From contig OZ024741.1 in assembly GCA_964016885.1 (NCBI GenBank), positions 29,760,001-29,824,000 of the forward strand: a stretch of 64,000 nucleotides of DNA, given 5' to 3'. The DNA comes from Eledone cirrhosa (lineage: Eukaryota). Below, one piece after another: positions 1 through 52,172 of the stretch (within the stretch, counting starts at the first letter, position 1; the number at the start of each line of letters is the position of its first letter). The notes beneath the pieces are model-generated. The model had not been told where the DNA came from, did not search any database, and worked only from the letters and a program-made list of their open reading frames with translations. The position numbers were made by a program, and so were the translations under genes.

Positions 1-1285
1 ATTTATTATAGAATTAAAATTAGAGATAATGATAAATTTCTCGGCTAGGCAGAGATTACATGTTCTGGATAGGGAAGCATTCCGGTAAGGAAAGGCGTTG
101 CAAACCTTCCTCCAAGAGATGTTGTAGTTAATATTTTTGTTTTTAAGGACCATATGAGTTCCGAGAGTGCCGTGTTAGTTCTTTTAAGTTGGTATTTCAA
201 ACACGAATTGTGATTATAAAAGCTTGCTTTAAAGGATGTGGAAGTGGAACCAAAATAGGTAAAAGTATTAGTACCAGTTATACCCTTACATTCTTACACT
301 AAATTTTTTATTAAGGCATTGGTTATTAAGAGGACATTTAGTTCTAACAGGGCAATTACAATTGCGATTAGAGAAATTACCAGAGTTATTAACAAGTGAC
401 CTAGTATTATTTGTAGAAGAAATTGGATTGGAGAAGTTATTTACGATAGGAACTATAGTTTCCTGATTTAACTATAGTTTCCTGATTTAACTATAGTTTC
501 CTGATTTAAATTTACTGAATCTAGCCTGGAGTTAACATTGACGTCGGGTTTACTATTATTATGACGCCCAGTGTTGGATGGATATAATTTATTATTTAAT
601 ACTTTATTATTATGTTTAGAGATAATGTTAGAGATGTTGGAAGTGGTGGAATAAGAGAATTTGATTGTATGTTTGTTAAAGATCTTACTATAGATATACG
701 AGGGAGAGAAGGCCCTAAAAATAGTTTAGGAATATTACTAGTAATAGATAGAGAAAAAGAAGCATTGTACCAAATCCTACTTTTGTATCTTACTCTTTTA
801 TTTAAGTTATTGGAATGTTCATAACTAACTATTTTACTATAAGTCGTTCGATGATTGGTTTCTTTACTGTATTTAATGTTATCAGGATAATCGGCTTTGG
901 AAAACGCATTATTATAATAATTGGCATTAGCATCGAAGATAAATTTATTAGAGGATAGATTTGAGATTCTTTTTTCTACATTACTGACTATAGCATTTTT
1001 ACCGTTAGTGGGGTAGTTAGATTTAAAATTAACATAATTTAGATTCTTATTGTCTTTATGGTAAGGGTAATATAGGCCGGTGTCAAGATTAGGAAGTTAG
1101 CTAGTTTGACGTTGTTTTCAAATACAATTTTTAGGTTATGGTGCTTAAATCGATCAAGTATATTATTCTTAATAATATTAAGATTAACTAAGTTATAGTT
1201 TAAGACAGTAAAATGGGCATCGTCACGATAAATTGCACCGCGAAGTTGAGGAATTTTCCGATTTAAAGAATTCAAAATAAAGATA
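1..1285 (-). mobile_element. Degenerate Penelope-like element fragment (RT C-terminus/thumb and GIY-YIG endonuclease)
   Basis: Minus-strand translation gives YRDD...IVFENNVKLANFL (RT), RISNLSSNKFIF, CNCPVRTKCPLNNQC and TYFGSTSTSFKASFYNH...LSELIWSLK...CNLCLAEK, typical of the PLE GIY-YIG C-terminus. Frames are broken. Confidence 0.8.
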
Positions 1286-1400
1286 CCAATATATATATAT
1301 ATATAGTAATAATAATATATGCGAAGACTAAAATCCAAATATCATATAAATAAGGAACCTAGAGCAAATATTTATTAAAATAACAGATTAATTTTTTTTT

Positions 1401-1451
1401 AGTTTCAGAAGATCTCGTTATGGGTGAAAGCAGCGATTCTTTGCTTAAACT
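1401..1451 (+). ncRNA. Hammerhead-like motif, family C (CAGAAGA core)
   Basis: AGTTT-CAGAAGA-tctcgttatgggt-GAAA-gca...tgc-TT-AAACT. Stem I is 5 bp. Homologues lie at 6815-6905, 33513-33563 and 51340-51520. Confidence 0.5.
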
Positions 1452-1464
1452 TTGATCTATTTTA

Positions 1465-1559
<95 letters not shown>

Positions 1560-1940
1560 AATATGATAATAATGGAGCTGCCGCGCTGCAAATGGGTTAC
1601 ATATGAAAAAGTTTGTCCTCATCAGTGGCCTTCTAACCGTCGTAGGCATTTCGTCGCATTAAAGGCCATATACCTCAGGTTGGTGCGAGCAACGGCTAAA
1701 AAAAGTCGTTGGGACACGTAAATAAGGGGGACGCTAGGGTAAACAAACAAAATGGTTTAAGCAACAGAAAGTGATGAAGAAGGAAACAAGTCCCAGATTT
1801 CTATGAATATAAATTCGGTGGAATCGTGAACGAGAGAACAAAGACCATCAAACCTGGTTGAAATGTGAGCAAGGAAGGAAATTCGCACAGGTCTAACGGG
1901 GGGAAGAAGGGGTCTGGTCTGCGAATTCGGTAAACATAAG

Positions 1941-2007
<67 letters not shown>

Positions 2008-2194
2008 ACTATATATATATATTTATATATATATAGTTACATAAATTATCTGTATGTGGGCTGTTCAGATAATCCTTACTTCTGTTGAAAACCCCAGCAT
2101 TACGTGACGCTAATTTTCGGCGAAACAAACTTTATCTGTAGTTTGTCTAGGAGTTTAATAATTATTGAAATGGTTAGTACACTTTAATTTTTTT

Positions 2195-2325
2195 TCCGGG
2201 TTTAAGTACCACAGTAAGTAAGGTACTTAATACGTAACAGAGTATAAATATTTAATATAGAAATTGCTTCTTCAGGACTAGAACTGTTTGAAATAGTTTG
2301 AAATAGTTCTAGTCATGTAGTTCCA
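2195..2325. mobile_element. Small inverted-repeat insertion of hammerhead family A (tail plus two truncated ribozyme 3' halves)
   Basis: Shares 'ccacagtaagtaaggtac...ttaatatag' and 'caggactagaactgttt' with 12280-12470 and 33682-33813. Flanked by TA-rich tracts. Confidence 0.6.
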
Positions 2326-2331
2326 TATCAA

Positions 2332-2393
<62 letters not shown>

Positions 2394-2642
2394 CAATTAA
2401 TATATATTAATAATAGAATGGTCATACGAGGAACCACCCCCTAGAAACGATCGTAAAATGAGTTCTACTATGAATTAACCGTTTTTTGTTTAATTTCATT
2501 GTTTTACAATTTGTATTTTTGACTCTGTATCCAATGAATTACATGGTTGAAAATATTGTATTTTAAACTTTGTTTCGCATCTTCTACATACGGTTTAGAC
2601 CCTACCATTAATTGATATATATATATACTTTATATATTTATA

Positions 2643-2683
<41 letters not shown>

Positions 2684-2769
2684 TTATATATATAGGAACG
2701 ATCGACTTTCGTCAAATCGGACCGAGGGAACAATGTTTCCGTTGGTCTTTCCAATTGCTAATACTATCT

Positions 2770-3663
<894 letters not shown>

Positions 3664-3778
3664 GGAGGTGAGTTTTATTGTAGTACAATAAAGCAATGCA
3701 GATATCGGATAAGAAGCACTCTTTGTTTTTGAAATGCGCATAATAAAATACAAGGAACTCTTTTAACCATCTTTTTAT

Positions 3779-3834
<56 letters not shown>

Positions 3835-3835
<1 letters not shown>

Positions 3836-4647
3836 ACAAATGGATGTACAGCATAATCGAAGCTTTGGTTGCAGCTAAGTTAACGTATGCAATCGGAATG
3901 TCAGCTAAGCACTCAATAAGGTATTTTACTTTAGAGTTATAACATTACGTTTAGACAGCTTTGCAAATTGAAGACAGCGACCGATAAGGCAGCCGCAGTT
4001 ACCAAAGCAATGAAAAAAAAATGACTCAGGAAAATATGACAAACCTGGACCATCGCCTCGATATTATACAATATCTCCGCTAGGCTTCTGTAAATCCGAA
4101 ATCAACAAAGTCCACTTACAGGGGCCTGCAAGTTATTGGCTTTGGAAGATAGAACAGTGGAATTTACTTCGTCAACAAATTTTCGTTCTAGGCCGCTCCA
4201 GTTGTGAATTTTAGCAGTAAACACCGCGAGTAGTCACGTGGTTTTTACGAAGGGAGGTAACTCCCGGTTTTGGCGGTCAAAATTCAAAATTTGAAAAAAT
4301 GAATAAATTCCTTTCCACAAACCGAATAAAGGTCTCAACTAGATGTTATTAAACAAACATAAACAATTAACGAATCAATAGAATTGTCTAATTAAATTAA
4401 TCAATTAATCATTAAGTCTAGGAGATAATAATACAAATGGAAGTACAGCACAATCGAAGCTCTGGCTGTAGCTAAGTTAACGAATGCAATCGGATTGTGC
4501 AGCTAAGTACTCAATAAGGTATCTTACCTTAGAGTTATAACATTACGTTAAGACAGCTTTGCAAATTGAAGACATCGACCGATAAGCCAGCCGCAGTGAC
4601 CAAAGCAACGACAAAAAAAAATGACAAGAAAAATTATACAAACCTGG
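3835..4647 (-). mobile_element. Retrozyme-like element, ~1.35 copies of a ~598-bp monomer
   Basis: 3835-4048 is repeated at 4432-4647. The monomer contains an HHR at 4043-4180 and abuts a (TA)/(TG) tract. Confidence 0.65.
4043..4180 (-). ncRNA. Extended type I hammerhead-like motif, UUGACGA core (family E)
   Basis: ATTTG-TTGACGA-a-gtaaattcc...ggatttac-a-GAAGC-c..gatattgtaatatc..g-GTC-CAGGT. The architecture matches the 612-bp repeat HHR. Confidence 0.6.
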
Positions 4648-4649
4648 CC

Positions 4650-5560
4650 TGTAAGTCACACCGATCAATATCATTGTCAGAATGACGCACTGGGAATCTA
4701 CCATGTTGTGGTTTTGTCTTCCACTCACAGGTTAGTTTAAAGTATCTTTACTTTGATCTTCACAATCATAGCTATCTCTGCAGCACTCAGGTGTTGATCT
4801 ATGGGTTTATCTTACTCCATGTTCAGGTCTTTTCTGAATATGCTCGCTTCTTTCGGTATTGAGTGTAGTCTTTTATTCAGTTCATGTTTCAGTACAGACA
4901 TGTGAAGTTCGTCTTGGGTGTTGTGGAGATAGCTATCAAATCCAATAGTTGCTGTTTGTATGCAGCTTTTTGTTTTAGGGCCGGCATAAGGCTTCAAGAC
5001 TTGAGATATACAGCCTATATACATCGACTTTAGGGTGGTGCATTTTCTCAATTGTCAGTAATTTTGTAGTTTTAACGTCCATCCTTTGTAATTTTAATGT
5101 CCATCCGATTCTAGTTTATGGCGTTAAAACTGAATATTTTAACTGGTACTGTTAGGCTGTTACTGGCTTTAAACTTGTGGCAAGAATTTTGCTTCCCTTT
5201 GTTATCAATCTCACTCTTTATGTATTCCTTCTATAAATGTTTCTTCATGCTTGAATGCTGGATTCCATCTGCTTTATTAACTCCAGGATATTTGTAAATC
5301 TCTTCATTTTTTAGTTCGTTTGTTGTGGTTTGCTGGTCTATGACACTGTCTTAGCTGCTAGAATGCAACACTCTCTTGAACATGGCATTTGCACTCTTGT
5401 CCGGTTCAAATAGCATATGGATGTCACCACTGAATTGTTTCACAGTGTACAGTGTGATGACTCCAGGATGACTCCAGGCTGTTTGGAATCATTGATTCCA
5501 AACAGCCTGGAGACATCCATATAGAGGTGACTATAGTGTGTGTTGTCTAGTCTATATACA
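4650..5560 (-). mobile_element. Heavily degraded non-LTR retrotransposon fragment (R4/Dong-like)
   Basis: Minus-strand remnants include HLYMD (RT) and KYPG, and the 3' end resembles that of the 26.8-30.75 kb element (gtgtgactt). Confidence 0.45.
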
Positions 5561-5757
5561 CAGCTAGTTGTGTGAAATATATGACTTAGTGGAGCAAGTG
5601 ACATACAGTAAAGGGAACAGTAAAGGGAACAATGTTTATCTCTGCAGCCATGGCAGCTCCGTCTAAATGAACAAGCTGAAGAGTGAGGGTAATGTGAGCT
5701 TAACCAGGTACCATCATGAAACTTTCCCTCTCTCTCTCACTCTCTCTCCCTTTCTCT

Positions 5758-6799: not shown

Positions 6800-7010
6800 T
6801 ATATTTATTAAAATAAAAGATTAAAGTTTAAGCAAAGAATCGTTATTTTCACCCTTAATGGAATCTTCTGTTAAGGGTGAAAGCAGCGATTCTTTGCTTA
6901 AAATTTACTCTGTTATTTTAATAAATATTTGCTCTAGGGTTCTTATATATATGATATATATTTATCCTTATCGAGCCCTCTTTGGATTTCAGTCTTCGCA
7001 TTTATTATTA

Positions 7011-8477: not shown

Positions 8478-8512
<35 letters not shown>

Positions 8513-8514
<2 letters not shown>

Positions 8515-8712
8515 CGAATAAAGTGTGGTAGGGAACCAGGTGGACCATACCGCACCAGAGTACTCAATACTTAGGGAAATAGAGTGGGTAATAGGAAAAT
8601 GTTCAAGACCCCGGCGGCAGAGCTCAAGCCGTTTCGACAGCTATTTCCGGACTCCAGAAATAGCTGTCGAACGGCTTGAGCTCTGCCCAAGGGGCCTTGA
8701 ACATTTTCCTAT
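8513..8712. mobile_element. Truncated palindromic family-B element
   Basis: Similar to 3190-3330, followed by a short inverted arm. Flanked by (TA)n. Confidence 0.7.
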
Positions 8713-9119: not shown

Positions 9120-9230
9120 GGCTTCTACAGCACTAGAACAGTTTCATTGGTATGAAATCATCAGCATGACCTGATGGATGATTTTATGCGAACGAAACAT
9201 TTCTAGTACTGTAGAATCCATTTCTATATT
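9112..9230. mobile_element. Inverted pair of degenerate family-A hammerheads
   Basis: gcttctacagcactagaacagtttca...tcatcag (minus-strand CUGAUGA...GAAAC...GUA) followed by gatga...gaaac...gtagaatc. Confidence 0.6.
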
Positions 9231-11866: not shown

Positions 11867-12410
11867 CGGCACATTCCAAATATGATTGAGAAATTAGACA
11901 CATACACTCAGGTATGCCTACAAGAATGTATGTATATGAGCGTGTGTATGTATGAGTCTGTGTATGTGTGCCTTGGTTTTCCGTCGGTTCCATCGAAGAG
12001 TGTTCAGGTTGTATAAATAACTGACAGTCTTAATCATAAAATTAAAGTACAATTGTTTAACTATTCCACAGATATACCCGACGTTACGCTAGTTCTCAAA
12101 GATGTCCTACACTGTACAAAAATGTAAACCCTTTGAATTACAATTACAACTAATATGCGCTCGCTGAGTGGAACAACAGAAATAGAGTGTCTTGAACAAA
12201 GACTCCAGACGATGAGACGTATTGAACTCAGGACCTATATATACACACACACACATATATATAAATATATATATAAGTTTATCCCGGGTTCAATCGGGGG
12301 TAACCACAGTAAGTAAGGTACTCAATACAACGCAGGGTATAAATATTTAATATAGAAAAGGCTTCTACAGGACTAGAACTGCTTCATTCGGGAGAAATGA
12401 TCAGGAAGCC

Positions 12411-12459
12411 GCTTCCTGAAGATTTCTCCAGAATGAAACAGTTCTAGTCTTGTAGAAGC
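12411..12459 (+). ncRNA. Minimal type I hammerhead ribozyme, family A
   Basis: GCTTC-CTGAAGA-tttctccagaat-GAAAC-agttctagtctt-GTA-GAAGC. Canonical core and a 5-bp stem I. A degenerate inverted partner lies at 12361-12409. Confidence 0.8.
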
Positions 12460-12463
12460 CTTT

Positions 12464-32335: not shown

Positions 32336-32829
32336 ATGGTACTAATTTGAATTACCAGAACTGTAAATATGAGCGAAACAAGTAAACATTAAACAATCTT
32401 TTAAATAAATTAAAATACAATTTAAATATTTACCTCTTCTAGTGGCATGACCGACGGTTTCGCTTATCAGAAGATTGGAAATTCAGAGAATTTCCAATGG
32501 AAAGATATAGATCTTCATATAGCTTTTCCAAATCTACTAGACATAAGTCCGTATAGATGTAGATATATCACCCTCTGCCCAGTGAGTGAATCAAGCCGTT
32601 AAAATGACCCACACACTTATTGGACCGTTAAAAAAAGCGGGAATTATAGACTCGCTGATATTTGATGCTGCAAGAAATAGCAGCATGATAAAGCATTTTT
32701 TTTCTCTACATTAAGGAGAATTAGATAAATGATATAGATATCCCAGTAGGTACTAGGTACTAATGGAAATATAAATGGTGTCTATAATATCTACATCTAT
32801 ACGGACTTATGTCTAGTAGATTTGGAAAA

Positions 32830-32909
32830 GCTATCTGAAGAACTATATCTTTCCATTGGAAATTCTCCGAATTTCCAATCTTTTGATAAGCGAAACCGTC
32901 GGTCATGGC
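32830..32909 (+). ncRNA. Type I hammerhead ribozyme with long stem II
   Basis: GCTAT-CTGAAGA-actatatc..attggaaattc.gaatttccaat..gataagc-GAAAC-cgtcg-GTC-ATGGC. Confidence 0.78.
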
Positions 32910-33293
32910 ACTAGAAGAGGTAAATATTTAAATCGTATTTTAATTTATTTGAAAGATTGTTTAATGTTTACTTGGTCCGCTCATATTTACAGTTCTGGTA
33001 TCTCAAATTAGTACCACAGAACAGCCACTATTATAGACACCATATATATTTCCATTAGTACCTAGTACCTACTGGGATATCTATATCATTTATCTAATTC
33101 TCCTTAATGTAGAGAAAAAAATGCTGTATCATGCTGCTATTTCTAGCAGCATGAAATATCAGCGAGTTTATAATTCCCGCTTTTTCTAACGGTCCAATAA
33201 GTGTCTGGGTCATTTTAACTGCTTGATTCATTCACAGGGCAGAGGGTGATACATCTACATCTATACGGACTTATGTCTAGTAGATTTGGAAAA

Positions 33294-33373
33294 GCAATCT
33301 GAAGAGCTATATCTTTCCATTGGAAATTCTCTGAATTTCCAATCTTTTGATAAGCGAAACCGTCGGTCATGGC
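33294..33373 (+). ncRNA. Type I hammerhead ribozyme, second tandem copy
   Basis: GCAAT-CTGAAGA-gct...agc-GAAAC-cgtcg-GTC-ATGGC. A third, core-mutated copy lies on the minus strand at 32444-32523. Confidence 0.78.
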
Positions 33374-33443
33374 ACTAGAAGAGGTAAATATTTAAATCGT
33401 ATTTTAATTTATTTGAAAGATTGTTTAATGTTTACTTGTTCCG

Positions 33444-33496
<53 letters not shown>

Positions 33497-33512
33497 TAAA
33501 AATACAGATTAA

Positions 33513-33563
33513 AGTTTCAGCAAAGAATCGCTGCTTTCACCCTTAACGGGATCTTCTGAAACT
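33513..33563 (-). ncRNA. Hammerhead-like motif, family C
   Basis: AGTTT-CAGAAGA-t-ccc-gttaa-ggg-t-GAAA-gca..tgc-TG-AAACT. Confidence 0.5.
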
Positions 33564-33605
33564 ATCGAGCCCGCTTTGGATTTTAGTCTTCAAATGTATT
33601 ATTAT

Positions 33606-33681
<76 letters not shown>

Positions 33682-33764
33682 GTTATTCCGGGTTGAATCG
33701 GAAATAACCACAGTAAGTAAGGTACACAATACATAGCAGAGTATAAAAGTTTTAATATAGATGA

Positions 33765-33813
33765 GATTCTACAGGACTAGAACTGTTTCATTCTTTAGAA
33801 ATCATCAGGAAGA
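33765..33813 (-). ncRNA. Minimal hammerhead, family A
   Basis: TTC-CTGATGA-tttctaaagaat-GAAAC-agttctagtcct-GTA-GAA. Confidence 0.7.
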
Positions 33814-34524
33814 CCGGACAAATCAAATCAGACAACACTCGCCTCCTACGTTTGGGACCTCAAAAGGAACTCCACCCCCTTCACGCTTAAATGGAAAATA
33901 CTCCAGAAAGCGCGCTCTTACAACGGAGGACACAAGAGCTGCGACCTTTCTATTTCAGAGAGCTACGAAATTTTATTCGCCAAGGGCCCGCTACTGAACA
34001 AACTCTCTGAACACTGCCCGAACTGCATGCACAAGAACTTTGCAACTTTCAAACACTTTAAGCCAGTGTTAAAGCCCGATGGCTAAAAATGACCTCCCCC
34101 TATTGGCCCCCTATACCTCCTCCCAACCTTACCCCCACCCCTCCTCAACCTGAAATACGGCCACTATGGTTATGTGAGTACCTCCTCCCTATCTACATTT
34201 TCTGCCTGTAGAGGTGTTTTTATGTGCCTGCGTATATGCGTATATTTATTGAGTACTTATTTATTTGTATGTGTATATATTTGTATGTGTATATATTTGT
34301 CTGTATGTGTGTATATGTATGTGTATGTGTGTATATATATATATATATGTATGTGTGTATATGTGTTTTATGTGTGTATATTTATGTATGTATATGTATG
34401 TATATATGTATATATATGTGTATATGTATATATATATATATATATATGTGTATATATATATGTGTGTATATATGTGTATGTATGTGTATGTGTATGTATG
34501 TATGTATGTATGTATATGTGTGTG

Positions 34525-34569
<45 letters not shown>

Positions 34570-34642
34570 TTCTGTATGTGTGTGTATGTGTGTGTGTATA
34601 TATATATATATATGTGTGTGTGGGCAGGTGTGTGTATATATA

Positions 34643-34758
<116 letters not shown>

Positions 34759-34939
34759 CGTGAGAGAGAGTGTGTATATATATTTGTGTGTGTGTGTGTG
34801 TGTATGTGTGTATGCGTGTATATATATATATATATGTATATATGTGTGTATATATGCGTTATATGTCTGTATATATGTGTATATTTATGTATAGGTCTGT
34901 GTATGTATGTGTATATATATATATGTATGGATATATATG

Positions 34940-34993
<54 letters not shown>

Positions 34994-35883
34994 GGGAGGG
35001 TCATATTTGCGTAATATTGCCAGAATTAATAACAGAACCCACTCACTGTTTGGTTGGTTTTCGCTTCTCGCTGTCTTTTATATATATATATATCTGCGAT
35101 CTAACTTACTCGGTCCTCAATGTTGCCATTGACTGACCGGCGGTCAAAAATAATACAGATACAATATAGACACAAACACATATATATAGTTTACATAATT
35201 TACATAAATCTTTCGTTGCACATCTGCAACATCGTCAGTGGTGTTATATTCATTGTTCCTCCTGTTGTGTTGTATGTCTACGCCATTTTTTTTTGTTCAG
35301 TCTGTCTATATATTTATTTATTTATTTGCTTGTTTGTTTATCTTATTTTATTTTGTCTTCTTTGCGCATGCGTTTGCGTGTGTGTATAGTGTTATGTGTG
35401 ATGTGTGACTAGTGTGTATAGTGTTGTGTCTGCTGGGTGACTAGTGTGTGTTTATGTGCTTGTGTATGTATTTGTTTATCTTATTTTATTTAATTTTATT
35501 TACTTATTTATACTTCTCTTAGGTCAGTGTTGTTTGTTTGGGTGTTGTTGTTGTTCCACTCATTCTTTCTGTTTAGCTTTGGTCTTCTAATTTCTATTTC
35601 ACTGGCCTCTCTGATTTGCCTATCTGCTGGGTCATTCCTATGTTTAGATATTATTCTAATTTCTATGTTGTCTATGTTACCGTCATGTTGTTGTCTAGCA
35701 TGTTCGTATAGTACTGACCCGTTTTTTCGTCCTTTTAGTTCCCCCCGTGTTGGTCTATCCTTTCACCTATGCTACGAGCTGTCTCACCTATGTATGTTGT
35801 TGTCATGTTTCTGCAAGTACCCTCTGTACATCTTATGCTATAGACTACGTTTCTAGTTTTACAGTTTATCCGGGGGTTCACCT

Positions 35884-38109
35884 GACAGAGCAGACCAGAG
35901 GCCCAACAACTTGGGATAAAACCTGTAGAAGGCTTGGTTAGCCTCAAGCAGCGCACAAGGGATGGTGAGGTAGTGTGTCTACCCACAGATACGTCTGGTA
36001 GGATGTCAATAGATAGCATGCCGAACTACATCGAGGCAATGCAACCCCACATCACCAACACGAGCGAAGTTGCACAACTAACACACGATGGGAAAGAAAA
36101 AATCCTCAACGCTCACATGATGATGTGGACTGACATCCTAAAGCCAAGCAGACGCACTGCCAACAACTTACAGGCGTCTAACAATGGCATACCACCCTTG
36201 TATGGGCTCCGCAAAGACCACAAGACAGTCGACGACCCGACAACAGGACCACCAACAAGACCCGTATGCGGAGCTAATATAGCTAGCAACTACAGGATCT
36301 CCTACTTCCTCTCAATGGTTATACGCCCCATAATGAAGATGTCCCCAGATGTATGTGAAAGTACAGAGGACCTCCTCAGCAGAATCAGTGAGTGCAACAA
36401 AAACAGGAGCCTATCCAACTGCATAATAGGCAGCATGGATGTGGTGTCACTGTACCCATCCATTAACATTGATTTTGCTGTGAAAAGATGTGTGGAGATG
36501 ATCATTGAGAGTGAGGTGGAGTTCTGCGACTTCGACACAGACGAACTGGGCCTCCTAGTTAGACTTACCTACGACACTGACTACCTAGACAGCCATGACC
36601 TTAGATGTTTCTGCCCTAGTAGACCTATAAGAGGTAGACCCCCCACCATAACCTCAATGGCTAAAAAGACTCCCATAGGAAGGTGGATTGGGTGGACCAA
36701 AGCTATACGGACCCCCCAAAACACTGATCAGGTAAGAAAAATGGTCGCACATGCAATAGGGGCTAGTATCAAAACTACCCTAAAGGGCCATATATTTTAG
36801 TTCAATGAGAAAATCTACACCCAAAATGAGGGAGCAGCCATCGGCGTCGGCATAGCTGGTGATGTTGCCAACCTTTTCATGGTATGGTGGGAAAGGAGAC
36901 TTAAAGATCTCCTTAATGAAAGCTCCATAGACCTCATCATGTACTCTCGTTATGTAGACGATATCAATATAGTTATAAGAACACCCCCACTAGAGAGCAC
37001 TAACAAGTTTGATTTAGAACGTAGCACGATGGAAAGCATCCAGCAGATAGCTAATTCCATACACCAGAGTATAACTGTAACTATAGACTTCCCTTCCAAA
37101 CACCCTAACAATAGACTACCTGTATTAGACACAGAACTCTGGATTAACACTATAGACGAGAGAGCCCAAATTCTCCACTCACACTATGCTAAACCCATGG
37201 CCTCCAAATACCTGATACTCAAAAACTCAGCAATGTCCAGTAGTGCTAAGTTTAATATTCTGATCGCAGATTTGGTACGAGTGATGAAGAATGTGTCCAG
37301 CATGTGCGACCCAACAGAAATGGAAGGACACATCCAACACTTCATCAACCGCATGCAGTTCTCTGGCTACAACCAAAGAGACAGAGTCAGAGTATACGAA
37401 GGAGCCATGGAAAAGTATAAGACCCTCATAGAACTGGACATGAAAGGAATTTTCCCACTATACAGGAGCAAATCATGGAATAGCTTAGATAGGGCTAGAC
37501 ATAAGATAGGGAAGGCCACATCATGGTACGACAACCAGAGATATCAGAGTGTCATGTTTGTGGACGCCACCCCTGGAGGGAAATTAGCTAACCAGTGTAG
37601 AAAGGCCCTGAGAAAGACCCACTTAAAAATAAAGGTGGTAGAAAAGCCAGGAACCACCATAAAATCCCTGATCAGCAAAACCTACCCTTTTAAGAAAACC
37701 CACTGTACTAATAGGAAATGTATCATATGTAAGGTGAACCCCCGGATAAACTGTAAAACTAGAAACGTAGTCTATAGCATAAGATGTACAGAGGGTACTT
37801 GCAGAAACATGACAACAACATACATAGGTGAGACAGCTCGTAGCATAGGTGAAAGGATAGACCAACACTGGGGGGAACTAAAAGGACGAAAAAAACGGGT
37901 CAGTACTATACGAACATGCTAGACAACAACATGACGGTAACATAGACAACATAGAAATTAGAATAATATCTAAACATAGGAATGACCCAGCAGATAGGCA
38001 AATCAGAGAGGCCAGTGAAATAGAAATTAGAAGACCAAAGCTAAACAGAAAGAATGAGTGGAACAACAACAACACCCAAACAAACAACACTGACCTAAGA
38101 GAAGTATAA
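35884..38109 (+). pseudogene. Penelope RT + GIY-YIG endonuclease, 5'-truncated, one stop (36798) and one frameshift (~37890)
   Basis: PPLYGLRKDHK, RPVC, SMDVVSLYPSI, GAAIG, YSRYVDD, LPVLD and CxxC...VVYSIRC...TYIGET. Confidence 0.92.
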
Positions 38110-38372
38110 ATAAGTAAATAAAATTAAATAAAATAAGATAAACAAATACATACACAAGCACATAAACACACACTAGTCACCCAGCAGACACAACACTATA
38201 CACACTAGTCACACATCACACATAACACTATACACACACGCAAACGCATGCGCAAAGAAGACAAAATAAAATAAGATAAACAAACAAGCAAATAAATAAA
38301 TAAATATATAGACAGACTGAACAAAAAAAAATGGCGTAGACATACAACACAACAGGAGGAACAATGAATATA

Positions 38373-38426
38373 ACACCACTGACGATGTTGCAGATGTGCA
38401 ACGAAAGATTTATGTAAATTATGTAA
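38373..38426 (+). ncRNA. Hammerhead-like motif in the Penelope pLTR (inverted copy at ~35190-35244)
   Basis: CTGACGA-t-gttgca-gatg-tgcaac-GAAA-gatttatgtaaatt. Stem II is strong and stem I is weak. Confidence 0.5.
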
Positions 38427-38813
38427 ACTATATATATGTGTTTGTGTCTATATTGTATCTGTATTATTTTTGACCGCCGGTCAGTCAATGGCAACATTGA
38501 GGACCGAGTAAGTTAGATCGCAGATATATATATATAAAAGACAGCGAGAAGCGAAAACCAACCAAACAGTGAGTGTGTTCTGTTATTAATTCTGGCAATA
38601 TTACGCAAATATGACCCTCCCCAAATATAACAATATCTGTTTCGACACACGATTTCATATAAAAAACCTCGCAAAACTATATATATATATATTTATACAT
38701 ATGCATGTGTGTATGTGTGTGTGTGTGTATATATGTGTATATGTGTGTGTGTATATATATGTGTGTGTATATGTATGTATATGTATGTATATGTGTATGT
38801 ATGTATATATATA

Positions 38814-38868
<55 letters not shown>

Positions 38869-38891
38869 ATGTGTATGTTTGTTTATATGTT

Positions 38892-38930
<39 letters not shown>

Positions 38931-39095
38931 GTATGTATGTATGTGTATATTTATTTATATATATATATTTATGTATATATATATATGTATATATATGTAT
39001 ATATATATATGTATGTGTGTATATATGTGTATGTATTTGTGTATATATGTATGTATGTGTATGTATATGTGTATATGTGTATGTATATGAGTGTA

Positions 39096-39549: not shown

Positions 39550-40131
39550 ATGTATATGTATGTATATGAATATATTTATATATATATGTGTGTGTGTTTT
39601 TATGTGTGTATATGTGTATGTGTATGTGTGTTTATGGTTGCGCGTGAGTGTGTGAGTGAGTGTTTTTTTGTGAATGTGACTGTTGATTTTTGGCATATAG
39701 TTGATTAGTTTAAGAGAAGTTCGAAGATAATTGTAAGATATGCACTCAGTATTTTGAATCTGTCTACAGAATTCTCTAAACCTTTGTCACTTAGTAGAAC
39801 CTTAATGATTTTAGCTTTTAAAGAATCTCCCTTTTCTTTAATTCTTTCTACCATGACTGACCCCCCACTGATCTTATAGACATCTGTTAGCTTAAGAGAA
39901 ACTTAATGACAAGGAATCGTATGCCATCCGGAACCTGTTTATAGAATTCTGTCTGCCTCTGTTACTCTAAAAACATAAATAAATAAAAATAAAAATGAAC
40001 TATAGCTTTGTAGAATTAGCTTTTAATGAATTCCCTTTTCTATCAACCAATGACCTACACCCATCCCACTCCCCACCCCCTCCTACCACTTGTAGAGACC
40101 TATAAATACCATTTTTATTTTTTGATACCCA

Positions 40132-40180
40132 GATTCCTGATGATTTCTAAAGAATGAAACTGTTCTAGTCCTGTAGAATC
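40132..40180 (+). ncRNA. Minimal type I hammerhead ribozyme, family A
   Basis: GATTC-CTGATGA-tttctaaagaat-GAAAC-tgttctagtcct-GTA-GAATC. Stem I covaries with the 12411 copy. Confidence 0.82.
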
Positions 40181-40195
40181 TCATCTATATTAAAA

Positions 40196-41566: not shown

Positions 41567-44179
41567 TCGGTCGTATGGTTGATTTTAGACATGTTCTATG
41601 TGTGTCGGTATTTTAACGATAGTTATAGCTCTGATTTATCTGAATTATTGAGCCCTCTGCCGCTCATTTCGAATTTTGTTTATCGTGAACTCGTGCGCCG
41701 ATTTTTCGATACTCGATTATTCTACTATATTTAGCTCTAGACTTAGCTATTGACCAGTTAATTTTATTGTTCATTTTTTGTCGATTCTATTAAATGATGA
41801 ATAGCTCCTGTTTATTTTAACATGTCTATTGAGCACTCTTATTCGATATGTGTATTTCCACATTTTCCCGAATATTTTTTGCGGATATAGAAGTTATCTC
41901 CCTTGCTGAATTCCATGTGCGTTTTTTCAACTTGGGTTATGCCTTTTTATTCGTTGGAACAAAAGCTCGTTGAGGAAGTAAATTCCGGTCCGCTGCTTTC
42001 TAGAAGTCTTATATATTTTTATGTGGGCTGATAGAGGGCGGTTTAAGGATTTACAGAAACACAAGAAGCTAGATTTACCATCTTTCTAGCGGGTCCGGGT
42101 ATGCTTTTTACATTCATTTGATTTATTGATTTATTGATATTTTATCGGAGTGTCCCGAATCTTCCAGATCGTAATTTTTCGGTCGTATGGTTGATTTTAG
42201 ACATGTTCTATGTGTGTCGGTATTTTAACGATAGTTATAGCTCTGATTTATCTGAATTATTGAGCCCTCTGCCGCTCATTTCGAATTTTGTTTATCGTCA
42301 ACTCGTGCGCCTATTTTTCGATACTCGATTATTCTACTATATTTAGCTCTAGACTTACCTATTGACCAGTTAATTTTATTGTTCATTTTTTGTCGATTCT
42401 ATTAAATGATGAATAGCTCCTGTTTATTTTAACATGTCTATTGAGCACTCTTATTCGATATGTGTATTTCCACATTTTCCCGAATATTTTTTGCGGATAT
42501 AGAGGTTATCTCCCTTGCTGAATTCCATGTGCGTTTTTTCAACTTGGGTTATGCCTTTTTATTCGTTTGGACAAAAGCTCGTTGAGGAAGTAAATTCCGG
42601 TCCGCTGCTTTCTAGAAGTCTTATATATTTTTATGTGGGCTGATAGAGGGTGGTTTATAGATTTACAGAAACCCAAGAAGCTAGATTTACCATCTTTCTT
42701 GTGGGTCCGGGTATGCTTTTTACATTCATTTGATTTATTGATTTATTGATATTTTATCGGAGTGTCCCGAATCTTCCAGATCGTAATTTTTCGGTCGTAT
42801 GGTTGATTTTAGACATGTTCTATGTGTGTCGGTATTTTAACGATAGTTATAGCTCTGATTTATCTGAATTATTGAGCCCTCTGTCGCTCATTTCGAATTT
42901 TGTTTATCGTCAACTCGTGCGCCGATTTTTCGATACTCGATTATTCTACTATATTTAGCTCTAGACTTAGCTATTGACCAGTTAATTTTATTGTTCATTT
43001 TTTGTCGATTCTATTAAATGATGAATAGCTCCTGTTTATTTTAACATGTCTATTGAGCACTCTTATTCGATATGTGTATTTCCACATTTTCCCGAATATT
43101 TTTTGCGGATATAGAGGTTATCTCCCTTGCTGAATTCCATGTGCGTTTTTTCAACTTGGGTTATGTCTTTTTATTCGTTCGGACAAAAGCTCGTTGAGGA
43201 AGTAAATTCCGGTCTGCTGCTTTCTAGAAGTCTTATATATTTTTATGTGGGCTGATAGAGGGTGGTTTAAGGAATTACAGAAACCCAAGAAGCTAGATTT
43301 ACCATCTTTCTAGTGGGTCCGGGTATGCTTTTTACTTTCATTTGATTTATTGATTTATTGATATTTTATCTGAGTGTCCCGATTCTTCCAGATCGTAATT
43401 TTTCGGTCGTATGGTTGATTTTAGACATGTTCTATGTGTATCGGTATTTTAACGATAGTTATAGCTCTGATTTATCTGAATTATTGAGCCCTCTGCCGCT
43501 CATTTCGAATTATTGTTTATCGTCAACTCGTGCGCCGATTTTTCGATACTCGATTATTCTACTATATTTAGCTCTAGACTTAGCTATTGACCAGTTAATT
43601 TTATTGTTCATTTTTTGTCGATTCTATTAAATGATGAATAGCTCCTGTTTATTTTAACATGTCTATTGAGCACTCTTATTCGATATGTGTATTTCCACAT
43701 TTTCCCGAATATTTTTTGCGGATATAGAGGTTATCTTCCTTGCTGAATTCCATGTGCGTTTTTTCAACTTGGGTTATGCCTTTTTATTCGTTCGGACAAA
43801 AGCTCGTTGAGGAAGTAAATTCCGGTCCGCTGCTTTCTAGAAGTCTCATATATTTTTATGTGGGCTGATAGAGGGTGGTTTAAGGAATTACAGAAACCCA
43901 AGAAGCTAGATTTACCATCTTTCTTGTGGGTCCGGGTATGCTTTTTACATTCATTTGATTTATTGATTTATTGATATTTTATCTGAGTGTCCCGAATCTT
44001 CCAGATCGTAATTTTTCGGTCGTAGGGTTGATTTTAGACATGTTCTATGTGTGTCGGTATTTTAACGATAGTTATAGCTCTGATTTATCTGAATTATTGA
44101 GCCCTCTGCCGCTCATTTCGAATTTTGTTTATCGTGAACTCGTGCGCCGATTTTTCGATACTCGATTATTCTACTATAT
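41567..44179 (+). repeat. Tandem array of ~4.3 copies of a 612-bp monomer, each with a hammerhead-like fold (retrozyme candidate), inserted in (TA)n
   Basis: Period is 612-613 (ORF echoes at 42134, 42746, 43358, 43971). TA tracts lie at both ends. Confidence 0.9.
41965..42100 (+). ncRNA. Extended hammerhead-like motif, UUGAGGA core (family E); repeats at 42577-42712, 43189-43324, 43802-43937
   Basis: GCTCG-TTGAGGA-a-gtaaattcc-[long hairpin]-ggatttac-a-GAAAC-[cc aagaa...ttctt gtgg]-GTC-CGGGT. Confidence 0.65.
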
Positions 44180-44217
44180 ATATATAATATATATATATAT
44201 TATATATATATACTACT

Positions 44218-50620: not shown

Positions 50621-51392
50621 GTATCAATTTTTACCATAATATTTAACATTCTGCATCTAATAAACTTGATATATTCACTTTCTGCCTTACCCAGGCATGC
50701 TTTTATTAATATTCTGTATATTTTGCTTCATATACCCTTATTATAACACCTTTCAATGCTATGATATCTTTTTACGCCTGTATTACTCTTATGTATAACT
50801 TTCTCTATAATATGCTTATTATAATCACTTTAAGTAATAACCTCTTCATAAGAGCTGCCAATATTTTGCTATCTGTTTACTATAATATCATTTTGTTACT
50901 CTTGATTTTCAAAATGATGCCACTGACATTGTTCATTACATTATATCTTAAAGAATGTTCTAAAGAGTGGGAATGTAATTATTTGTTTAAGTATTGTGTA
51001 AGCTCCGAGACAATTATCTCCAAGAAACGATCGTCAGCAATTAAAGGTATTAAGCAAAAATTTGATTGATTTATATTTTGTATCTCTGCTCTGTAATACA
51101 TCTGATAATTTACATTGTGCTATTTCTGTTATTGGCAATCGGGTAGTACAGCATACTACCCTTTCATATTTATAATTATATATAACTCATATATAAGTAT
51201 ATATATATATTATAAAGATTCGGGGGCCCCGACGGTTGAGCTCTTTCCCTTTCAACAGCTAGTTCCGGACTCAGTTGAAACGGCAAGAGTTCAGCTGTCG
51301 GGGTTCCGATCCTTTATAAGGTAAGCATAATCTACTACCTCGTTAAGGGTGAAAGCAGCGATTGTTTGCTGAAACTTTAATCTGTTATTTTA

Positions 51393-51468
<76 letters not shown>

Positions 51469-52172
51469 TTATTAAAATAACAGATTAAAGTTTCAGCAAA
51501 GAATCGCTGCTTTCACCCTTATATATATATATATATATATGGACATATATATCTATATGGATATTTAGAGCTTTTCAAAGCTAAAACTATAAAACTATTT
51601 ATATGTTTACTGAATATCTGGACTTATAGTTGTAGTAATTTTGAATACTATAAGATTCATATGTTTATAGTTTTATAATCTTTTCTACGTAGACACAAAT
51701 TCTGTATCACTGGTTATATCTAAAGGTATCTGATCACATGTATCGATCTTTTAAGAACACACACACAAATGCATAGGCACACACCCACACACAAACATAC
51801 GCACACTTTCACACACACACACACACACACAAATATATAGGCACATACACACACACGCGCGCACACACACGCACGCACACACATATATATGTATGTATGT
51901 AGATGGATAAATAGAAGGCTTACATAATATTCTTCAGCTTATATATATCCATATATATATACAAACACATAAACAGACAGACAAACACACACACACACAT
52001 ATATATATAAACACACTTGTATGCATATAAATAAATATATATATATATATACAGATCTAGAGAGACAGGATGGTAGATAGAAAGAGTGTTACATATAGAA
52101 ATAGATAAAGTTAGATAATATATTATTTCTTCTATGGAAGAGTATATTCATATCTATATACATGAAACTTGG

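Follow-up and report, generated by a model that had tools for sequence, protein, structure and literature searches.

Non-LTR retrozymes of animals are non-coding, low-GC elements built of tandem units, each with one type I hammerhead ribozyme; they occur as monomers, dimers and multimers, and together with PLEs (PMC7229834, Cervera & de la Pena 2020; Li et al., preprint 10.64898/2026.07.22.740005). A link to PLEs has been proposed in both sources, and the available text of neither describes a fixed 3' end combined with a pile-up of 5' ends at the ribozyme site. Eight of nine vertebrate retrozyme dimers tested did not cleave, according to the accessible part of the preprint (10.64898/2026.07.22.740005), and the role of the hammerhead in endonuclease-bearing PLEs and in animal retrozymes has been stated to be unclear (PMC8557442, in the text available).

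PLEs are biased towards (TA)n targets (PMC8557442) and have hammerheads of their own in their pseudo-LTRs. As described in the accessible text of PMC4209133, these ribozymes, above all the U3-A8 ribozyme of Schistosoma Cercyon, have U3-A8 covariation, an extra nucleotide between A9 and G10.1, a G10.1-C11.1 pair, type I topology and a long stem II, and a C directly precedes GAAA in the consensus. U3-A8 is a published, active and natural hammerhead variant (PMC3088659; PMC7151607); a natural variant from a saltern has U3 and G8, with a 2-nt insertion before position 3, and the available passages of the same two papers describe no insertion between positions 11.1 and 12. The Poseidon PLE of Anolis (PAc, PMC11167929) has a fixed internal start of reverse transcription downstream of the ribozyme site, an AT-rich target and tandem organisation. 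In the available account this sole reconstituted PLE did not need cleavage in vitro and 0 RNA-seq reads ended at the site.

We analysed a 64,000-nt stretch of the Eledone cirrhosa genome (contig OZ024741.1, positions 29,760,001 to 29,824,000; the window) that contains a hammerhead-bearing repeat (Table 1). The repeat is a decayed member of a dispersed, non-coding 599-nt family (family A). With a probability of roughly two in three, this family is a non-autonomous retrozyme mobilised by a PLE, and its variant hammerhead cut the RNA template in vivo. Elements of this kind are already known, and the window copy is probably dead.

Table 1. Features of the family A copy, its surroundings and the family B array (positions in the window).
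Feature	Position	Strand	Remark
Whole insertion, 1.36 units of the 599-nt family A repeat	3835..4646	-	Begins at the base that follows a predicted cleavage site and runs to +213, the fixed 3' end
One complete 599-nt family A unit, N1.1 to C17	4048..4646	-	37% GC
Terminal partial repeat, +1 to +213	3835..4047	-	3' end is the fixed end of family A
Type I hammerhead-like motif	4043..4180	-	C17 at 4048
Motif stem I	4180-4176 / 4047-4043	-	
Motif core UUGACGA, then extra A	4175-4169; 4168	-	
Motif stem II	4167-4090	-	Carries an insert of ~60 nt; extra A next, at 4089
Motif GAA; stem III; C17	4088-4086; 4085-4049; 4048	-	
A15.1G change	4085	-	Rare; predicted to impair the window copy
5' junction	4643..4650	-	CC.GG microhomology with the LINE
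Older decayed LINE fragment	4651..5634	-	Copies 71-78% alike; cut inside the coding region
(CA)n(TA)n tract at the 3' end of the insertion	3781..3834	.	Usual target
Family B array, 612-nt unit	41567..44182	+	4.3 units, four motifs; core the same as that of family A

Family A has the architecture of a non-LTR retrozyme. Its tandem units are non-coding and low in GC, every unit bears a type I hammerhead, and the 599-nt unit of the window (4048..4646) has no ORF of at least 120 aa. Its unit length falls within the 51-972 bp range of the preprint (10.64898/2026.07.22.740005) and the units here are longer than the 170-400 nt given in PMC7229834, as far as the available text of these sources goes; unlike the retrozymes described there, the core variant escapes Rfam, family A consists mostly of dispersed partial copies, and the elements are known here from genomic DNA alone. 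The hammerhead shares with those of PLE pseudo-LTRs the U3-A8 covariation, the extra nucleotide between A9 and G10.1, the G10.1-C11.1 pair, the type I topology and the long stem II. It differs from the accessible account of them (PMC4209133) in another additional A that separates C11.1 from G12, in the U3.G8 of its most frequent lineages, in a stem II insert of ~60 nt, in the lack of an accompanying ORF, and in a full stem III, which should permit monomeric folding. U3 with G8 is shared with the saltern variant. Literature searches, mostly of openly available papers, returned no report of the family, of 'U3-G8' so spelled, of a base inserted to separate C11.1 from G12, or of 5' ends piling up at the site. 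The core is new only in part: both U3-A8 and the 5' extra A have been published, and the 3' extra A (before GAAA) was not found in the literature searched.

The direct repeat and the letters of the motif were as the initial annotation gave them. Positions 3835-4048 match 4432-4647 at 89% over 217 nt (offset 597-599), and the minus strand reads AUUUG (4180-4176) UUGACGA (4175-4169) A GUAAAUUCC...GGAUUUAC (4097-4090) A GAAGC (4088-4084)...GUC (4050-4048) CAGGU (4047-4043). This is the only hammerhead motif in the family A copy of the window; the family B array has four.

Families A and B are related outside the ribozyme as well, contrary to the original description of the two monomers as dissimilar there. 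The 599- and 612-nt units are colinear (local score 122 versus 41+-6 for shuffles, with a maximum of 62 in 200), 279 of 404 aligned columns are identical (~69%), and the fixed 3' ends of the two families come within about 10 nt of each other when aligned. Because the monomers are colinear homologues, their common core is inherited from a shared ancestor. Across the core and its flanking positions 22 of 23 are identical between the families, versus 69% elsewhere, N7 being the sole difference. Both families are abundant in the 3.0 Gb genome: an exact 32-nt motif of family A has at least 365 matches and the family B motif 897 (0 for either reversed control). Two or more distinct hammerhead motifs were found at 4 of 125 family A loci and 11 of 51 family B loci, and family B forms arrays of 4-5 units that are 97-98% alike. 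In one family A lineage (L078, L089, L136, L142, L180 and others) loop III has grown into a TA/TG-rich mini-repeat, with core and stems intact.

The ribozyme core is conserved in a non-canonical form. We compiled 129 family A and 67 family B motifs, picked for high alignment scores against the window motifs, a choice that leans towards intact copies. In place of the canonical C3UGANG8A, U3 is present in 126 of 129 A and all 67 B motifs, and opposite it position 8 is G (73 A, 35 B) or A (55 A, 32 B) in both families. The G10.1-C11.1 pair is present but displaced by one A from A9 and from G12, rather than directly adjacent to them; the two extra As occur in 125 and 123 of the 129 A motifs and in 65 and 67 of the 67 B motifs. 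The family has GAAA with A15.1-U16.1 and a GUC (NUH) site; the window copy has G15.1. GAAGC, as read in the initial annotation, is not a family trait: an A occupies position 15.1 in all 67 B motifs and in 123 of the 129 A motifs (G in 4), and contigs of two public sequencing runs, which have DNA-type variation only, give A there at nearly all summed depth. Because the G is rare and A15.1-U16.1 is usually essential (PMC3088659, in the text available), the window copy is predicted to be crippled, and judged by its letters its ribozyme is likely dead.

The stems of the motif covary. Three stems surround the core with stem I open, as in type I hammerheads, and 87% of cells are paired versus at most 47% when the strands are slid. 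Compensatory changes were found in stems I, II and III, with a shuffle control that is inflated by sequence relatedness: pair 2.2-1.2 of stem I is U-A or C-G between the families, pair 10.3-11.3 of stem II is A-U (95) or G-C (19), plus 8 G-U, and in one lineage GCG/CGC of stem III has become ACU/AGU. Among motifs parsed by a strict pattern, 51 of the 57 from family B and 21 of the 43 from family A put the hammerhead fold no more than 2 kcal/mol above the MFE; for the window copy with flanks the MFE structure is not a hammerhead (z -0.51). A covariance model trained on 26 selected motifs recovers the window A motif and four in the 612-bp array (41959-43945), two of these being in the training set. 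The earlier argument that U3, the A.A step and the stem II base, being kept across two monomers, speak for function is partly supported by core conservation and covariation; it is weakened in that the core is shared by descent and the variant is partly published.

Rfam gave no hammerhead match for the window motif at gathering or at E<=10 and recognised 0 of 5 window motifs, and 775 motifs in the genome match a two-part core pattern exactly (reversed control 0); a core with an extra A before GAAA would, if active, broaden the descriptors used in hammerhead searches. A search for the variant core elsewhere gave 0 matches in viral contigs and two in metagenomes, without similarity to either unit. 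Short-stem-II relatives in the genome were rejected as a class (2 matches versus 1 in the control).

The 5' ends of genomic copies heap just 3' of the predicted cleavage site in both families. Two samples that had been selected for coverage of the whole unit or of the ribozyme had suggested that 5' ends were random, so for family A we took exact matches to a motif at +82..+113 in listing order, unselected for 5' extent, and this motif-anchored sample overturned the impression of randomness. The first 100 listed gave 90 loci, to which five long copies were added and from which two were removed (one duplicate, one misaligned), giving n=93; one listed place within an insertion already counted, and four listed places, were left out, and five copies with apparent alignment artefacts were checked and counted as real upstream ends. 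The family B sample comprised 70 loci minus 5 duplicates (n=65) and left out four multi-unit insertions, which slightly favours short copies (16/56 becomes at worst 16/60). The +1..+35 bin was chosen after viewing family A; family B and a second-round sample serve as replications.

Of the 76 family A copies that reached the zone, 39 ended within +1..+35 and 37 crossed the site; the 35 nt upstream held 3 ends. The rate ratio to the rest was 6.1 (p 2e-14), and ~40% of the sampled copies start just past the predicted cut. In family B, 16 ends fell in the bin versus 0 upstream (p 8e-5). About half of the A copies and most B copies cross the predicted site. The upstream edge of the pile is +2 in both families, where four of 93 A copies and one B copy end. 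Apart from these and the window copy, the bulk of ends lie further along, up to 35 nt past the site, and the next ends upstream come at -15 in family A and at -37 in family B. Measured from the 3' end, the pile spans ~180-212 nt in family A and ~215-249 nt in family B; because these distances differ, the pile tracks the site and not a fixed length. The 5'-end histogram, the check named in the initial annotation, is therefore non-random in both families.

The pile stands out more clearly in family A than its counterpart does in family B. In family A it reaches 2.06 ends per 100 nt, every other 35-nt window has 0.85 or less, and the correlation with AT content is weak; in family B, sparse far-upstream windows equal or exceed the hazard of the pile (1.19 versus 0.93). 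Family A has a second pile one unit upstream (4 ends in 139 nt at risk). In the separate, partly overlapping second-round sample of family A (48 of 50 loci used), 9 of 15 ends were in the pile, with an unsharp edge, since 6 of 15 crossed and ended within 110 nt. The second-round motif sample of family B had 2 ends in the interval of the pile and 4 just beyond, and a best-hit list, which is a biased sample, had many starts at +1..+26 one unit up. Stops were no more frequent in U3-A8 lineages (1/3 in family A, 8/21 in family B) than in U3.G8 lineages (36/29 and 7/17).

The 3' ends are fixed and lie at (TA)n. Family A ends at +213 in 66 of 90 alignments and family B at +250 in 55 of 65, and a TA run adjoins the 3' flank in 70 of 88 A and 54 of 62 B copies. 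With this end placed past the ribozyme, truncated 5' ends, incomplete tandems and (TA)n targets, the families look as a non-autonomous PLE derivative should. Any target-site duplication or tail would be masked by the microsatellites that flank the copies. We infer that +213 is the start site of reverse transcription in family A, and a fixed start downstream of the ribozyme, an AT-rich target and tandem organisation are also found in Poseidon, at whose site RNA ends were absent whereas here genomic 5' ends pile up. Based on these properties, we conclude that the family has the features of a PLE-mobilised non-LTR retrozyme as far as they can be tested, and departs from the strict canonical hammerhead core. 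Eight of 50 family A copies (L230, L231, L216, L288, L297, L282, L215, L236) end at +2..+14 past the predicted site and not at +213; those that are readable (L230, L231, L282, L288, L297) have lineage markers in common. These copies possibly reflect a shifted start of reverse transcription, which would require a joined or uncut junction.

We believe, at the same odds of about two in three, that cleavage explains the 5' pile-up, judging from the distribution of 5' ends and the covariation. Tandem copies would be transcribed, and the ribozyme would cut some junctions, not all; a PLE reverse transcriptase/endonuclease would nick (TA)n and begin copying internally at +213, and reverse transcription would run off the cleaved 5' end. 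The cDNA would then be joined to the target, usually after being trimmed by 1-35 nt to a microhomology, and inserts of 1.x units would be copies that had passed an uncut (or re-ligated) junction. The window copy would have passed one junction, stopped at the next cut end and joined the old LINE via CC.GG, with loss of target DNA.

The same ends could arise in other ways. Reverse transcriptase might stall, without any cleavage, at the foot of the folded three-way junction, with the cDNA joined at nearby AT microhomologies and the core kept as a protein-binding fold or a relic. Such stalling would suit the scatter of ends over +2..+35, their clustering at TA-like spots (+14 in family B, six copies), the missing dose effect between U3-A8 and U3.G8 and the dispensability of cleavage for a PLE in vitro (PMC11167929, in the available text). 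However, the ends of four copies in family A and one in family B extend to +2, within the 3' strand of stem I, 0 end at -14..+1, few ends fall inside the long stems II and III (0.21 and 0.12 per 100 nt), and catalytic nucleotides are preserved, not pairs alone; we consider stalling distinctly unlikely. A transcription start seems very improbable to us. Here an internal promoter of the kind known from SINEs or PLE pLTRs would start RNAs at about +1..+20 and coincide with the ribozyme site by chance or history; the start site does lie in PLE pLTRs (PMC8557442, in the part available), and the second pile one unit up would suit full-length transcripts. Yet in both families, which are 69% alike and have different sequences over +1..+35, the edge is no more than 1 nt away from the bond predicted to be cut, and many copies of both read through the site.

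A further alternative concerns the form of the template and is compatible with cleavage, differing solely in how junctions are crossed. In the published retrozyme model, monomeric RNA circles, covalently closed, serve as templates for rolling-circle reverse transcription, and short copies would come from re-cleaved circles. The highly similar multi-unit arrays of family B, the family A sublineage that ends at +2..+14 and needs a joined junction, and the circles shown for mussel, coral and axolotl retrozymes (PMC7229834, available text) point this way; the second family A pile at the previous site is expected of linear, partly cleaved multimers, not of a closed circle. We hold circular templates to be possible, and somewhat doubtful. 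On the cleavage reading, the U3.G8 core with its symmetric A.A step (from the A9/G12 layer to G10.1-C11.1) may be catalytically active in an animal germ line, with genomic 5' ends as a fossil record of in vivo cleavage that sets the template end for PLE-driven retrotransposition, and linear multimers with some junctions left uncut would serve as templates besides circles; we consider this proposal, drawn from sequence comparison, to be evenly balanced. A 5'-end histogram of genomic copies is a cheap read-out of cleavage in vivo for any retrozyme or PLE family, and it can tell linear from circular templates.

The boundary of the window copy is less informative than the family-wide pattern. Similarity between the repeats does end at 4647, at C17 of the next unit, as originally observed, but microhomology blurs the exact boundary: the old LINE continues CC-TGG where the family A element reads CC-AGG, and the junction can therefore be placed anywhere from C17 to about +4. 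A contig from a public sequencing run crosses the junction (4582-5200) with 0-1 differences. The identification of the element's 5' end with that of a self-cleaved RNA fits the pattern of the family, and the lone boundary at 4647 is weak evidence for it on account of the microhomology. Uncertain by ~4 nt, this boundary could be secondary. For this copy only, 4647 would be uninformative about RNA ends if a longer element had later been joined to the old LINE by a deletion at microhomology; the CC.GG at the junction, a LINE continuation that was not found within window positions 1 to 4646, and the rarity of exact +1 starts among copies are in its favour. Against this, 4647 sits at the edge of the family-wide pile, which is present at the first and second site, and we regard a deletion as unlikely. 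The greater age of the LINE, whose copies are 71-78% alike, and the microhomology at the junction also make a template switch from retrozyme RNA to LINE RNA unlikely. The claim that the non-canonical hammerhead is or was functional thus draws support from the population of 5' ends and the covarying stems.

No pile was found in an abundant autonomous PLE of the same genome, which has a CUGAUGA core and a minimal ribozyme with a short palindromic stem III. Three of its 37 ends were at +1..+35 (Fisher p 4e-6 versus A, 0.02 versus B); many of its 5' ends appear to be inversion junctions, and five are in the loop of stem II. In 38 loci of one abundant PLE family we found no sequence in common with the retrozyme families that would mark a partner, and Pfam gave no match for five retroelement ORFs.

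Other PLE-type elements are present in the window. A very abundant autonomous PLE with a reverse transcriptase and a C-terminal endonuclease (1-1290, minus strand, and 3661-3780; L373-L380) carries a hammerhead 132 nt upstream of its 3' end and has another end point ~45 nt past the site; from its motifs it is presumably Hydra-like. A second PLE, with GIY-YIG at the C terminus, lies between inverted pLTRs (34635-39005), each of which has a canonical CUGACGA hammerhead (35238 minus, 38379 plus). Palindromic (fold-back) inserts in (TA)n, typical of PLE-type inversion, occur at 3190-3600, 8481-8712 and 32337-33453. A compact hammerhead whose core is canonical (CUGAUGA...GAAAC...GUC) belongs to an abundant repeat that often forms inverted pairs in (TA)n and is found at 2240-2290, 9130-9175, 12400-12460, 33760-33815 and 40130-40185. 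Another (TA)n-inserted repeat, CAGAAGA-UCCC-GUUAA-GGGU-GAAA...AUUC (1400-1461, 6830-6914, 33500-33593 and 51340-51520), is a possible hammerhead with a U4A core change.
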